IMG/VR virus record: IMGVR_UViG_3300044216_003192
Location: 1-24,019 of that record
DNA from: a virus
Lineage: Duplodnaviria > Caudoviricetes
Reading direction: 5' to 3' (one strand)
DNA length: 24,019 nt
Part shown: positions 3,402-17,607 of the stretch, in pieces
Layout: every line of letters begins with the position of its first letter
Numbering within the stretch: the stretch's first letter is position 1
Translations under genes and position numbers: made by a program
The notes under the pieces: model-generated
Told to the model about the DNA's origin: nothing
Database searches by the model: none
The model's input: only the letters and a program-made list of their open reading frames with translations

Positions 3402-4531
3402 TGGCAATATTCAAAGTAAATACAAGAAGTTCGATTTATATAAGAGTACAGAATGCAACAATAGCAGACGCACAACTTGACTTGTTTATATATACGGGTA
3501 CTTTTAGCACCGATAAACCAGCGACGGCAACTTATTCATTGACAAAATCAGCTATAAGCTCGAACAATTATGTCATTTTTGAAGTAAGCGATTTGATAAA
3601 TGATTATATAAACTATACTTTATCAAGTGCGAGTAATATTAATACATCTCAAACGACAGTTTGGGCAGAAGCAACAATCACACCAGAAAACGCTCTTGGA
3701 GTTGATTTAGACGTTGTTTCCGTGATTATGTTGGCTTTTGTGGGCTACGGGTATTACAATGAAGGATTCACGTCGCAAACGAAAACAAACAGCTTAACAA
3801 CAGTCAACGTAAACGCAGTTGTAGGAAATACAAATTTCTTACAAAGCAACACAACAATATTTAGAAAAGCAGGTGACACCGTTACAATACCATTGCTTTC
3901 AAATTACAGTGTCAATTCTGGAAGCGACACATTGACGGGTAGTCAAACGGCAGTTTTTAAAAACGGCAGTTCTACAATAAGCACTGTTTCCGCAAGCACT
4001 GGACAAACAGCTAGTTCAAACGCAATTACTTATGCCACATCTACAACAGCAACTTTGACTTCAGTTGATGTGACTGACTCAAGTGGTACAACAACAATTA
4101 CGATTGAAGAACAAGATTGTAATAAATTCAATCCTATACCAGTAAGTTTTGCAAACAAACACGGTGCAATTCAGACCGTAAATTTCTTTTTGAAATCAAT
4201 AGAATCTTTGAGTGTAAAAAATGAAGAATATAATAGTAACACACTTACAACTTCCGCAACATATAATACTTTTGAACATCAATATAAAGTCAGAAACGTA
4301 ATCGGAAGAGAAAAGATAATTTTAAATACTGGATATGTAAACGATGACTTCAACCAAGTTATTGAAGAGCTGTTGCTTACTGAAAGATGTTGGATGACAA
4401 AAGACAGCACAATACACCCTTTAATACCAATCACAAAAGATGTAACGTTTAGAACGAGCTTAAATGATAGATTAGCAAATTATACCATAGAGTTCAACTA
4501 TGCTTACGACAAAATAAATTTAGTTTCTTAA
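3401..4531 (+). CDS. Virion tail structural protein (distal-tail/tail-tip region), 376 aa
   Basis: Ser/Thr-rich beta protein, translationally coupled on both sides (TAATG). The C-terminal domain (FANKHGA...LNTGYV...IEELLLTE...YTIEFNYA) is Dit-like by pattern. Confidence 0.55.
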   Translation: MAIFKVNTRSSIYIRVQNATIADAQLDLFIYTGTFSTDKPATATYSLTKSAISSNNYVIFEVSDLINDYINYTLSSASNINTSQTTVWAEATITPENALGVDLDVVSVIMLAFVGYGYYNEGFTSQTKTNSLTTVNVNAVVGNTNFLQSNTTIFRKAGDTVTIPLLSNYSVNSGSDTLTGSQTAVFKNGSSTISTVSASTGQTASSNAITYATSTTATLTSVDVTDSSGTTTITIEEQDCNKFNPIPVSFANKHGAIQTVNFFLKSIESLSVKNEEYNSNTLTTSATYNTFEHQYKVRNVIGREKIILNTGYVNDDFNQVIEELLLTERCWMTKDSTIHPLIPITKDVTFRTSLNDRLANYTIEFNYAYDKINLVS

Positions 4532-13835: not shown

Positions 13836-14360
13836 ATGGCGTGTTTATTAACTTCGGGACGAGAATTACCGTGTAAAACGGGAGTCGGCGGATTGAAATC
13901 AGTAACGTTTGTAGATTATGGCACTTTAGGAGCTATCACGGTCGCAAACAATATGATTACTGATTTTGGTGGAACACCGACATTTATGAAATTTGATATT
14001 AAAGGAAACTCAACCTTTGATACGGTAGTCACTTCATCAAGAGAAAACGGTACTACATTCTACGAGTCAACACTAGTTTTGAATCTTATATTTCAAGAAG
14101 AAAAAACACAAGCAGAAATTAAATTGCTTGCAGTATCAAGACCACATATCATTGTAGAAGATTATAACGGTAATTTCAGATTGATGGGTAAAGTTCACGG
14201 TTCAGAGCTTACGACTGGTAATTTTTCAAATGGGGCGGCTATGGGTGACTTATTTGGTTACTCATTGACTTTTGTTTCACAAGAAACAGAAGCACCAGAT
14301 TTTATAACAACTGCCGCGTATGAAGCAGAATCACAAGGAACACAGATAGATGTTAATTAG
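13836..14360 (+). CDS. Major tail (tube) protein, 174 aa
   Basis: MACLLTSGRELPCKTGVGG..., SRENGTTFYE, IIVEDYNG and GYSLTF: beta-sandwich tube-like pattern; co-transcribed with the MCP. Confidence 0.7.
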   Translation: MACLLTSGRELPCKTGVGGLKSVTFVDYGTLGAITVANNMITDFGGTPTFMKFDIKGNSTFDTVVTSSRENGTTFYESTLVLNLIFQEEKTQAEIKLLAVSRPHIIVEDYNGNFRLMGKVHGSELTTGNFSNGAAMGDLFGYSLTFVSQETEAPDFITTAAYEAESQGTQIDVN

Positions 14361-14381
14361 AGTTTAGTGGGTTATCAATTT

Positions 14382-14409
14382 AGGGGGTATTTCTACCCCC
14401 TTTTTTTTT
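14382..14409 (+). terminator. Rho-independent terminator
   Basis: AGGGGGTA-tttc-TACCCCCT plus T run. Confidence 0.9.
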
Positions 14410-14430
14410 GTATAGCTGGAAATTAAAAGC

Positions 14431-14456
14431 AAAAAAAAACCACCTTAATAGGTGGT
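14431..14456 (-). terminator. Rho-independent terminator (minus strand)
   Basis: The reverse complement reads ACCACCT-atta-AGGTGGT-T run; near-identical to the terminator at 1378. Confidence 0.85.
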
Positions 14457-14479
14457 CTTAGTTTGAATATAACTATTTA

Positions 14480-14620
14480 TTAGTTATCTTCTTTATAGTT
14501 ATCTTGCTTATCTCTAACGTTTATTTTAGTTACTTTTTTGTTTTCAGTAACTTCTAAAACGGGATTATTTATATCGTCCAGATTTAAGAAAATTTCTATT
14601 TTGTTGTTTGTTTTACTCAT
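14480..14620 (-). CDS. Small hypothetical protein, 46 aa (MSKTNNKIEIFLNLDDINNPVLEVTENKKVTKINVRDKQDNYKEDN); not in the ORF track
   Basis: Only credible minus-strand gene: it has its own TATATTTG box, the shared leader TTAAAATTAATATT-ATG and a downstream terminator. Confidence 0.7.
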   Translation of the reverse strand: MSKTNNKIEIFLNLDDINNPVLEVTENKKVTKINVRDKQDNYKEDN

Positions 14621-14642
14621 AATATTAATTTTAAAATTTAAG

Positions 14643-14650
14643 CAAATATA
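14643..14650 (-). promoter_or_regulatory. Bacteroidota-type -7 box TATATTTG
   Basis: Exact TAnnTTTG on the minus strand, 30 nt before the ATG at 14620. Confidence 0.65.
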
Positions 14651-14705
14651 CAAAAATGTTTATAAATACGAAATGACTTAAAAAAACGATTAGTTCAATT
14701 TTTCG

Positions 14706-14713
14706 TATCTTTG
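14706..14713 (+). promoter_or_regulatory. Bacteroidota-type -7 box TATCTTTG
   Basis: Exact TAnnTTTG, 31 nt before ATG 14737; divergent from the 14643-14650 box. Confidence 0.65.
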
Positions 14714-14736
14714 TATATAAACTTAAAATTAATATT

Positions 14737-14880
14737 ATGAAAAAAAATGTAATAAAAGACCTTAAAACCCAAAAGCATTATTGGGATAATGGTATTGTTC
14801 GAAATTTTGAAGAAGTGGTAGCATACAGTATGACTTGGAAAGAAGCGATAGCAAAATTTCCCGAATGTATAAAAATGTAA
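14737..14880 (+). CDS. Small hypothetical protein, 47 aa (MKKNVIKDLKTQKHYWDNGIVRNFEEVVAYSMTWKEAIAKFPECIKM); not in the ORF track
   Basis: Shared leader and -7 box; stops 4 nt before the next ATG. Confidence 0.7.
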   Translation: MKKNVIKDLKTQKHYWDNGIVRNFEEVVAYSMTWKEAIAKFPECIKM

Positions 14881-14884
14881 TACA

Positions 14885-15262
14885 ATGAGATTTACTAAAA
14901 CAGAATTAGAAGATGATTTAGCATTTATAGCAGACATCACACAAGAAAGATTACCCGAACCTTTTTATCAAAACTTAGAAAATAAAGTAACGAGCTTTTC
15001 AAAATATGGCAACGAATTGTTAGAAATTATTTATCAAGAACTTTCTGATTGGTTTGAAATGTGGATATGGAGAGTTGAAGGTGATAAGGAAGGTGATAGA
15101 GCTTTCACTTTAGGCGTAAACCAAACTTGGAGAACTTTAAGAAAGATATACTTTTACTTAGATAGTAATGTTGGTGGTTACGATGATTATATTGAATTTA
15201 GATTTTACAGGTCAAAAAATTATGTCAAAGACGTGCCAAATGAATATAAACTTTGGCGTTAA
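14885..15262 (+). CDS. Hypothetical protein (accessory island), 125 aa
   Basis: Acidic, aromatic-rich ORF followed by a terminator; no recognisable motif. Confidence 0.75.
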   Translation: MRFTKTELEDDLAFIADITQERLPEPFYQNLENKVTSFSKYGNELLEIIYQELSDWFEMWIWRVEGDKEGDRAFTLGVNQTWRTLRKIYFYLDSNVGGYDDYIEFRFYRSKNYVKDVPNEYKLWR

Positions 15263-15287
15263 AAGTCTTTGTTTATCAACAAGAAAT

Positions 15288-15313
15288 ACCACCAAATTAG
15301 GTGGTTTTTTTTT
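15288..15313 (+). terminator. Rho-independent terminator
   Basis: ACCACC-aaatta-GGTGGT plus T run. Confidence 0.85.
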
Positions 15314-15539
15314 GTCTTGGAATGTAAAAAAACAAGCAAAAAACTATCACTTTGACAAAAACTTTAAAATCAATTCTAAGGCCATTTAAATCACTTCTAA
15401 GACACTTTCTCTTGTCTGTAATATATACATATCAAAATTTCGAGAAGTGCCATTAAAACAAAAATTCCTTCGTAGAGTTTTTGACAATTTTTAATAAAAA
15501 ATTTTTCCTTAAATTAGTCGAAACTTTAAAATTTATATT

Positions 15540-15758
15540 ATGAAATACAAAAAAAGAATCGGTATTGTTCCACGTGAAACAAGTGACATTTTTTTTCATT
15601 TTGGTTGCCGAAATTACACGCAAGCAAAAATTACCAGAATGCCATTGGAACACAAATTAGAATGGTTAAAAAAAGACGCTGAACAATTTCTTGAAATAGT
15701 TAATCGTCCAAATTTAACACCACAAGATTTGGTTGATGATTATCTAAATCGCGAATAA
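15540..15758 (+). CDS. Hypothetical protein (accessory cassette), 72 aa; contains the parS site
   Basis: -7-like box TAAATTAG at 15510-15517, leader TTAAAATTTATATT-ATG, and a terminator at 15781. Confidence 0.7.
   Translation: MKYKKRIGIVPRETSDIFFHFGCRNYTQAKITRMPLEHKLEWLKKDAEQFLEIVNRPNLTPQDLVDDYLNRE
15566..15581. promoter_or_regulatory. parS: parS centromere-like site (ParB/Spo0J binding site), TGTTCCACGTGAAACA
   Basis: Full match to the chromosomal consensus TGTTNCACGTGAAACA; the near-palindrome extends by a flanking T/A pair (15565-15582). Confidence 0.85.
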
Positions 15759-15780
15759 AAAAATCCAAACTGGAATTTAT

Positions 15781-15807
15781 AACCCTGTCTTTTTGATGGG
15801 GTTTTTT
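15781..15807 (+). terminator. Rho-independent terminator
   Basis: AACCCTGTC-ttttt-GATGGGGTT (with G-U pairs) plus T run. Confidence 0.75.
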
Positions 15808-15814
15808 ATTGACA

Positions 15815-15846
15815 TTTGTGTATAACAAATCTTTTATTTATCTTGG
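15815..15846 (+). promoter_or_regulatory. Bacteroidota-type promoter (TTTG-N20-TATCTTGG)
   Basis: TTTG at 15815-15818 and a -7 box at 15839-15846 with one mismatch, 29 nt before ATG 15868. Confidence 0.6.
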
Positions 15847-15867
15847 TCTAAATTTAAAATTAATATT

Positions 15868-17142
15868 ATGAAAACACTTATTAAAAACATCGAAAAACTA
15901 AACGACAAAATTTCACTTTCGGAAGATTTACGAAAAAAAGAATATTTACAAGCTGAAGAAAAGTTGATAGACGCTTCAACAAGTTACCATTGTAACTTAG
16001 TCAGAGAGATTTGGAATCTTCTTGACGAAAAGATTCAAAACACTTGCAACATTTTTATTGACACGCAAGAACACTATGTTGATTTAAATTGTGCAAGAGC
16101 TTTTTATCACGAAGTTATCAGCCAAAACATTTGGCTTGGCAGAGATTTAAATGACAACTTTGAAGCGTTTAACACTGATACGAAACTTCAAACTGATAGA
16201 AAATTCATCATTTCAATTAAACAAAATTTCGCTAAGAAAAAATTAGTTGTCAATTTAAAACTCATAACACCTTGTGATTTTATCACAAGAGCATCAGCAG
16301 GAACAATGTTCACTCAACAAGAAATTGACAGAGAAGAAGAAGAAGGTTTCAGTTATGGTGCTTACAACGAAGATTACAGACTTAAAGTTGCAAAAACTCT
16401 TGAAATGCAAAATTATTTTGCAGATACAAAGGTCAAACTCGTGAATGATATTCAAGAAATCTTAGAAGAAGAAAACTGGTTGTCAATTGCAAAAAAGAAC
16501 GCAAACAAATTTGTAAATCAAACAAGGGATATTTTTTATGATTTAGAAAAACAATATAAAAATCAAATTGAAACCTTGAAAAAAGACTATGTCTCTGAAT
16601 TAGTTGGAAGCTCAATTGAACTACCATCCAATATGGAGTTGTCTGTTCCAGTAAATAAAATAAGAACATTTCACGCAATCACTAAAATGGAATTGCTTAA
16701 AAAAACCCAAAAAGGTTACAAGGTCAATTTATACACAAGTGCAGATGTGTATAAACAAATTGAAGATAAAAGTAAGTTTGTATTACGAGCTAAGGATGTC
16801 ATTCTAAAAGAAGTAGTTGTAGAAGATTTTTTTGACACTGCTCTTTATGTTTCTATAAATCAAGATAAAATAGAATTACATAAGACCATAGAAGATTGGA
16901 GAAAAGAAAACCATAAACTTCTTCATCAAGCTCAAATGAGTTCACACATCAAGATTACTGAACTGAAATCATTTAGAAAATTGTATGACACTGTTAAAGG
17001 TGTATATTTCCAAAGAGCTATTAGATACTATCGAAAAGGTTACGAAAATGCCTTTAAAATCCAACGCGGGTTGATTTGGCAAAATTTCGACTATTATTTA
17101 ACAACACATTTCAGTGACTTAAGAAATGCTGAAACAAGTTGA
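15868..17142 (+). CDS. Hypothetical protein (accessory cassette), 424 aa
   Basis: Long ORF with its own promoter, the shared leader and a terminator; no motif recognised. Confidence 0.85.
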   Translation: MKTLIKNIEKLNDKISLSEDLRKKEYLQAEEKLIDASTSYHCNLVREIWNLLDEKIQNTCNIFIDTQEHYVDLNCARAFYHEVISQNIWLGRDLNDNFEAFNTDTKLQTDRKFIISIKQNFAKKKLVVNLKLITPCDFITRASAGTMFTQQEIDREEEEGFSYGAYNEDYRLKVAKTLEMQNYFADTKVKLVNDIQEILEEENWLSIAKKNANKFVNQTRDIFYDLEKQYKNQIETLKKDYVSELVGSSIELPSNMELSVPVNKIRTFHAITKMELLKKTQKGYKVNLYTSADVYKQIEDKSKFVLRAKDVILKEVVVEDFFDTALYVSINQDKIELHKTIEDWRKENHKLLHQAQMSSHIKITELKSFRKLYDTVKGVYFQRAIRYYRKGYENAFKIQRGLIWQNFDYYLTTHFSDLRNAETS

Positions 17143-17171
17143 AAATATAAAGTAGATTCTAATTAATTTAA

Positions 17172-17198
17172 AGCCACTCATTAGAGTGGTTTTTTTTT
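17172..17198 (+). terminator. Rho-independent terminator
   Basis: AGCCACTC-atta-GAGTGGTT plus T run. Confidence 0.9.
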
Positions 17199-17201
17199 GT
17201 G

Positions 17202-17232
17202 CAAAAAGAAAGTATTTTTACGATATATTATT
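17202..17232 (+). promoter_or_regulatory. Putative phage late promoter, copy 4 (CAAAA-N14-CGATATATTATT-ATG)
   Basis: CAAAA at 17202, CGATA at 17221, ATG at 17233. Confidence 0.7.
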
Positions 17233-17607
17233 ATGAAGATTATAACTTTAGCAAGTTCTCAAACATTTCAAGTCATACCAAGAAATTATGTTTCAAACGT
17301 GAATATTGTGATTAGAGACGAACAGTTGAATAAAGATTTTACGTTTAGCACAACCGCGTCAACAAGCAGAGATATTTTGAGTTTTACAACAACTTATACT
17401 TCAAGCGGAAGCAGTATTTTCAAAGAAGGTCGATTTTATGACTTGACTGTAAAAGACTCGAGTGATAATATTATTTATAAAGACAAAATATTTTCGACCG
17501 CTCAGACAATAAATCAATCAAACAATAACTATTATGATATAAACAAAGATGAATATGATTTTGACGACGCGACAAGTTCTCACGACACTGAATACATAAT
17601 AGTATGA
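17233..17607 (+). CDS. Virion structural protein preceding the portal (possible head-closure/neck protein), 124 aa from MKIITLAS
   Basis: The start is fixed by the promoter motif (the ORF-track start at 17197 lies in the terminator tail); ATGA coupling to the portal gene. Confidence 0.6.
   Translation: MKIITLASSQTFQVIPRNYVSNVNIVIRDEQLNKDFTFSTTASTSRDILSFTTTYTSSGSSIFKEGRFYDLTVKDSSDNIIYKDKIFSTAQTINQSNNNYYDINKDEYDFDDATSSHDTEYIIV

Follow-up and report, generated by a model that had tools for sequence, protein, structure and literature searches.

Why should a tailed phage carry an exact copy of parS, the site read by the chromosomal partition protein ParB, and is it used there? The window analysed here (24,019 nt) is the whole of the viral record G000, which is about 73% complete and encodes a terminase, a capsid-like protein, a portal, a tail fibre, an endolysin and a holin; complete relatives have genomes of about 33 kb. 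The first-pass annotation had reported an exact host-type parS within a 72-aa ORF, and this was confirmed: TGTTCCACGTGAAACA at 15566-15581 is the sole match without mismatch to the 16-bp pattern TGTTNCACGTGAAACA in the window, and even when up to three mismatches were allowed, only seven matches at four places were found. The site starts 26 nt past the ATG (15540) of the ORF and spans the last base of an Ile codon and the codons V-P-R-E-T. In the available text of two papers, the parS consensus of chromosomal ParABS systems is given as TGTTTCAC-GTGAAACA (PMC7383237, PMC10197239). RNA structure across the site was not found (z +1.2). A parS-like sequence with two mismatches at 14273-14288 was discounted, as it stems from F-V-S-Q-E-T codons that are conserved in the flanking gene (18/80 loci) and does not contain the CACGTG core. 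The features of the locus are collected in Table 1.

Table 1. Features at and around the parS site (positions in the window)
Feature	Position	Strand	Basis or remark
Conserved gene past the major capsid gene, putatively tail-tube-like by its position; left island flank	13836..14360	+	
Lineage-specific island made up of cassettes (promoter, gene, terminator), inserted between two conserved genes of the structural module	14361..17232	.	about 2.9 kb
125-aa island ORF	14885..15262	+	ORF list
Terminator-like hairpin (both strands) bounding the parS cassette upstream	15288..15305	.	hairpin search
56 nt absent from G081/L327, comprising the cassette head, the ATG and the first codons	15507..15562	+	ends 3 nt before parS
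parS cassette head: TAAATTAG and A+T-rich leader common to island genes	15510..15539	+	repeats D1, D2, D4
72-aa ORF of a small phage protein family, SDIFF and TPQDLVDD motifs	15540..15758	+	homologue alignment; no Pfam or PHROG match
Host-type parS 16-mer TGTTCCACGTGAAACA	15566..15581	+	1 base off a perfect palindrome; common flavobacterial variant
128 nt absent from G081/L327, flanked by an 8-nt microhomology in two copies	15600..15727	+	strain comparison
Terminator-like hairpin at the end of the parS cassette	15781..15803	+	hairpin search
424-aa island ORF, function not assigned	15868..17142	+	287 nt downstream of parS
Conserved gene ahead of the portal gene; right island flank	17233..17607	+	

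The simplest answer would be chance. Markov models of orders 0-4, trained on the letters of the window with parS taken out, predicted 3.6e-5 to 9.6e-5 exact consensus matches per window, and models trained on related phage loci predicted 5.7e-6 to 3.5e-5. Together, these ranges enclose the value of about 4e-5 that had been estimated roughly at first, which was thus right. However, the window had been chosen for its parS motif, and about 1 to 25 chance matches are expected over the some 250,000 windows scanned, so that selection cannot be concluded from the low p-value by itself. This expectation speaks for the view that the site is a chance product or a neutral passenger of a 5’ end that was replaced or drifted, which ParB may bind but which nothing selects. 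All things considered, we regard this view as unlikely, for reasons that lie in the codons, in a sister strain and in other viral genomes.

The site is written over codons that the protein family conserves. Among 53 homologues from outside the lineage, K, V, D and T are found in 50, 51, 51 and 51, respectively, where the 72-aa protein reads I, V, P and T, so the site puts I-V-P-R in place of the K-V-D-x codons of the family. V-D-x-E/D/R-T is read in 51 of the 53, V-P-R-E-T in none, and Arg does not occur in any of them at the position after the P of the phage. With V-P-R-E-T given, the chance of the codon choice in parS under phage codon usage is p = 0.009, and the Arg codon CGT is rare in the phage (19/231). 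The overwriting of conserved codons and this codon choice point to a cause of the I-V-P-R replacement at the level of the DNA. The loss of a D that is kept in nearly all homologues and the rare CGT codon also argue against a neutral passenger. In favour of the passenger, however, the right-hand GAAACA, which comes from the Glu-Thr codons, is already present in 5 of the 11 distinct homologous 16-mers (22 loci); these differ from parS by 6-9 letters, nearly all of them in the left ten bases. It also gains from near matches that arise from protein context, as three relatives (L155, L170, G023) show: their protease gene contains a parS-like 16-mer with one mismatch, in F-S-R-E-T codons. This near match reflects either a coincidence imposed by the protein or a second, weak gain, and was counted against selection.

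The 72-aa protein was also considered as an Arm DNA-binding domain on the basis of Atlas comparisons (0.90-0.92, 85-110 shared features), and this was rejected because true family members typically reach higher values. In seven seawater runs, the ORF showed three changes, all elsewhere than in parS; two were silent and one replaced Y with F.

The site is not a trait of the phage family. Among the best 80 of the 599 related records, the exact core (14-mer) occurred in one, namely a near-identical one, and in none of the eight that were at least 90% complete. The closest cultured relatives are the Nonlabens phages P12024L/S (Inhavirus; host Persicivirga sp. IMCC12024; capsid 31%, portal 38%), which share the structural gene order and have a small inserted gene at the island position; in contrast to the phage studied here, P12024L has no parS within two mismatches. 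The site was likewise absent from all 19 records with homologues of the 72-aa gene and from the homologous place in all 22 homologue loci. Conservation throughout the family was therefore rejected, and the family evidently thrives without parS. The first-pass annotation had named absence from ORF homologues and relatives as evidence against a function, and this absence is largely what was found. The absence of parS from nearly all relatives indicates a lineage-specific gain; together with the single copy, present once in the 24 kb of the window (of a genome of about 33 kb) and once in the 20 kb of the sister record G081, it also counts in favour of the neutral passenger. Two exact parS sites (2493-2508 and 3447-3462) were observed in a distant relative (L045/G255; capsid 29%); one of them lies in the terminase region, the other in a small ORF past the tube-like gene.

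The accessory island that had been described around the site is real. At 77 of the 80 related loci (the other three end too early to span the position), the gap between the two flanking genes was 86-262 nt in 66 and 500-1800 nt in 10, and this island was found in one, which is near-identical. It contains nine terminator-like hairpins, compared with 0.8 in shuffled sequences, and its cassettes share an A+T-rich head; the head of the parS cassette contains TAAATTAG, which differs by one mismatch from the Bacteroidota -7 promoter element (TAnnTTTG). The 424-aa protein occurs only in this lineage (3 IMG/VR loci); it matched no family, the best structural comparison gave a TM of 0.33, and its Atlas model is of low confidence. 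Such cassettes, which have repeated heads and two-way terminators, are found among the structural genes here and also at 812-1355, and are swapped between strains. Seawater contigs join 14736 to 14885 and thereby skip a 47-aa ORF. Relatives have a second island of this kind past the terminase gene, and it contains homologues of the 72-aa gene, in L302 in two copies. A search for sibling islands by the cassette motif yielded seven loci, of which none matched genes or DNA of the window and none contained parS. A recurring design with parS behind an A+T-rich leader was rejected: among 88 loci in 44 clusters, only this phage matched the structural genes of the family.

The arrangement of the cassette suggests a second alternative, a regulatory or disruptive role. 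Bound ParB could damp the island promoters, which lie about 50 nt upstream and about 270 nt downstream, or replicated phage genomes could titrate host ParB, which would then be drawn off the two sites of the host and disturb its segregation and replication. The location of the site in the first codons behind the cassette head and upstream of the head of the 424-aa gene fits promoter damping. The titration arm gains from hosts that have only about two parS sites, and tyrosine integrase was not found in five records including the window (four being at least 90% complete), a result in keeping with a lytic phage. However, parS behind such a leader does not recur in the phage family, and a sister strain retained the site but lost the cassette promoter element and the start codon. 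Taken together, damping and titration appear rather improbable, even more so than a neutral passenger.

This sister strain, G081 (locus L327), is 95-97% identical to the window over long shared blocks and has the same 424-aa gene. Two deletions (Table 1) have removed most of its 72-aa gene, and the exact 16-mer is left in a relic of about 45 nt. The first-pass annotation had proposed to check whether the site stays conserved when the surrounding ORF changes, and G081 passes this check, in one assembly that contains a run of N about 420 nt upstream. When both deletions were placed randomly inside the cassette, parS was spared in 10-17% of the trials; when they were free across the 440 nt between the terminators, it was spared in 43%. 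Eight of the ten short repeats listed in the cassette would take out parS if a deletion occurred there. The deletion joints were not seen in eight seawater runs. In the same strain, the 125-aa island ORF is swapped for another cassette, whereas the reverse cassette at 14480-14620 is retained. Because G081 lost the promoter element and the start codon and retained parS, the site is not there to control the 72-aa gene, and its retention between two deletions also argues against a neutral passenger.

A third alternative, that the site reflects an assembly chimera or a captured block of host origin DNA, is suggested by the fact that the exact 16-mer flanks mnmG on chromosomes of the host group. 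However, the DNA just 3’ of parS is sequence of the 72-aa phage gene family, and in two further IMG/VR records, the site is likewise linked to phage structural genes. In seven of eight seawater runs examined, contigs span parS with no letter changed, and run X10 had no coverage there; 23 runs were listed, all of them seawater metagenomes, and many may belong to one campaign. When 401 genomes of the order were searched for a donor of the 5’ flank, none was identified: the flank together with parS matched only one genome, with two mismatches, one of them within the parS core. A chimera with host origin-proximal DNA was therefore rejected, and a captured origin block is hardly credible either. 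A much smaller capture of about 10 bases of host DNA is compatible with the explanation preferred below.

Whether a ParB that reads this 16-mer is available depends on the host. The host was inferred from sequence relationships to be a member of the Flavobacteriaceae, since P12024L/S infect that family. An assignment from metagenome bins was rejected: capsid relatives were found in six contigs, and the labels of their bins (Ignavibacteria, Bacteroidia, Methanobacteriota, 'bacterium', Flavobacteriaceae) are so varied that no host can be named from them; three of these bins had no exact parS consensus. The family of the Flavobacteriaceae-labelled assembly (G083) served as the host-side sample. 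The exact consensus was found in 55 of its 151 genomes, mostly as the variant of the phage, and the reversed control in none. With a looser pattern that allowed one mismatch, 59 of 61 genomes were positive, mostly with two sites about 1.9 kb apart, whereas the control was scattered in 21 of the 61. All ten excised host-group sites flanked mnmG/gidA. The consensus is thus supported as the parS type of the likely host group, on whose chromosomes the very 16-mer of the phage occurs. That it is a common host variant is a further point against the neutral passenger. Most Flavobacteriaceae chromosomes (L339-L348 and the 61-genome set) have two parS sites that bracket mnmG/gidA, and in the complete contigs these are distant from parAB.

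ParB with an adjacent parA was found in all of five flavobacterial genomes, with R173, G201 and the GERR CTP motif, and with K at position 184. In the available text of PMC7383237, R173 and G201 are conserved in ParB and altered in Noc, whereas K at position 184 is the Noc residue and is rated permissive. The phage site is thus like chromosomal parS in being the same 16-bp variant that lies beside mnmG in Flavobacteriaceae, whose ParB is of the RxxG class, but unlike it in being on phage DNA, with neither an origin nor parA-parB adjacent. SMC was not found over the cut-off in any of the five flavobacterial genomes nor ScpA in any of 41, whereas the search controls matched in 9 of 14; for two gut Bacteroidetes, the available text of PMC10197239 reports no known condensin. 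These results leave the idea that the phage recruits SMC, or mimics the chromosome towards SMC-type surveillance, without support. SMC probably has no part in the use of the phage site, and a condensin of another kind may exist in flavobacterial hosts.

The 16-mer is overrepresented in viruses at large. We estimate from 3/64 parts of IMG/VR that about 2700 stretches of the collection contain it exactly, compared with 77 for a synonymous control; this roughly 35-fold excess refers to one control word and to counts that include redundant contigs, and it speaks against a neutral passenger. Among 130 sampled viral parS loci, no match to host mnmG-region proteins was found. Of the longest ORFs near the viral sites (69 ORFs, one each from 69 of the first 80 loci, counting no contig or phage group twice), 34 matched PHROGs, and 22 of these 34 were structural or packaging genes. 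The sites lie in all reading frames and between genes. A single site in a contig of at most 36% G+C was found at 24 of the 130 loci, corresponding to about 500 in the collection; when these are compared with the count of the single control word, chance would account for roughly 15% or less of this class.

Several other arrangements were observed in the same survey. In a group of phage contigs of 10.6-11.8 kb (L008, L024, L025, L038, L039, L047, L062-L065, L075, L076), exact parS copies, one or two per contig, lie no more than about 300 nt from the ends. Several of these contigs carry the site at both ends, possibly in terminal repeats of small linear phages. A 116-kb contig of 65% G+C (L057-L059) has nine parS sites in about 5 kb. 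Of the 69 ORFs mentioned above, all within 1.5 kb of a viral site (L001-L080), 14 are terminase or portal genes; gene length or a preference for packaging ends may explain this.

The window was searched for a partition system of its own. The earlier statement that no parA or parB is visible was upheld, as profile searches for ParA (AAA_31), ParB_N and HTH_ParB were empty in the window, which covers about 73% of the genome. ParA and HTH-ParB were also absent from four relatives per search, with about 27% of the phage genome lying outside the record. Proteins of 170-247 aa that consist of ParB_N only, without the site-reading domain, were found in 3 of 20 records. A phage-encoded ParABS, as in a plasmid prophage, was rejected because parA and a full-length parB of the phage were not found beside parS.

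Considering all this evidence, the 16-mer is a real feature of the phage and probably has a function. The explanation that we favour, with some reservation, is that it is a recently gained candidate loading site for host ParB; an exact host-group parS that lies over conserved codons and was kept after deletion of the gene makes it likely that the phage borrows host ParB. The idea of a borrowed host ParABS-SMC is thus partly supported, namely in its ParABS part, for which the host-type site, a ParB of the parS-reading type and the survival of the site beyond its ORF speak, but not in its SMC part. In the favoured explanation, a single event would have placed parS at the 5’ end of the 72-aa gene, joined at the GAAACA of the Glu-Thr codons, and the gene would be a dispensable carrier of the site. 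Host ParB would load there as a CTP clamp and then spread, and the loaded ParB would attach the phage DNA, once injected, to the ParA partition system of the host. ParA could then position the phage DNA on the nucleoid or, with lysis delayed, bring it into a daughter cell; such a carrier state would not require an integrase. Since the host chromosome has only about two sites, one parS per phage genome would be a real share of the ParB load. The host, ParB binding, selection and benefit are the elements of this explanation that we infer. Binding of host ParB to the phage site, which the favoured explanation and the regulatory alternative have in common and between which the border is soft, appears quite likely.

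Plasmid-prophages such as P1 and N15 have their own ParA, ParB and site, and their unintegrated genome is kept through division. The phage parS would likewise keep an unintegrated genome through cell division, but ParA and ParB of the phage itself were not found here. The nearer precedent is found in the Bacillus phages phi29 and Nf, which, according to the available text of PMC2731898, contain parS sites that are read by the host ParB, Spo0J; the phi29 genome has five, which serve entry into the prespore. As in phi29 and Nf, a host-type parS is present on the genome of a tailed phage and host ParB is the presumed reader. Unlike in phi29, with five sites and prespore entry, there is one site here, in an accessory gene of one lineage. 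In addition, Smc-ScpAB was not found in the flavobacterial host group, whose members are not known to sporulate. The presence of several sites per genome is a trait of phi29 and not a requirement of the mechanism. In the openly accessible literature, a survey of host-type parS across phages was not found, and phi29/Nf were the sole precedent.

That a phage can exploit host ParB is already known from phi29, and the present case would be a new instance of the same kind; in the literature found, such use is documented only for phi29-like phages and in connection with sporulation. The evidence comes from a single instance with weak replication, and phages in which parS occurs many times are better suited to tests. 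The value of this case lies in the absence of SMC from the flavobacterial genomes searched and in an evolutionary snapshot of three stages, which amounts to a natural experiment: the gene without parS in the 53 homologues, the gene with parS, and parS without the gene. A bolder reading is that a phage of lytic type from the sea is gaining a centromere, at the expense of conserved residues in an accessory gene that a sister strain later lost, that in hosts with neither spores nor Smc-ScpAB and with just about two sites of their own parS provides this phage, which would have no integrase, with a ParA-driven carrier state through starvation, and that it is a fast-evolving cis element of phages generally. 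We consider this reading doubtful; if it were true, the thousands of viral contigs with parS would carry a cis-acting accessory element of phages in general. Should selection act on this one site, in a phage whose marine hosts (Flavobacteriia) form no spores, then host ParABS would offer phages a wider, SMC-independent route to DNA positioning or carrier states.
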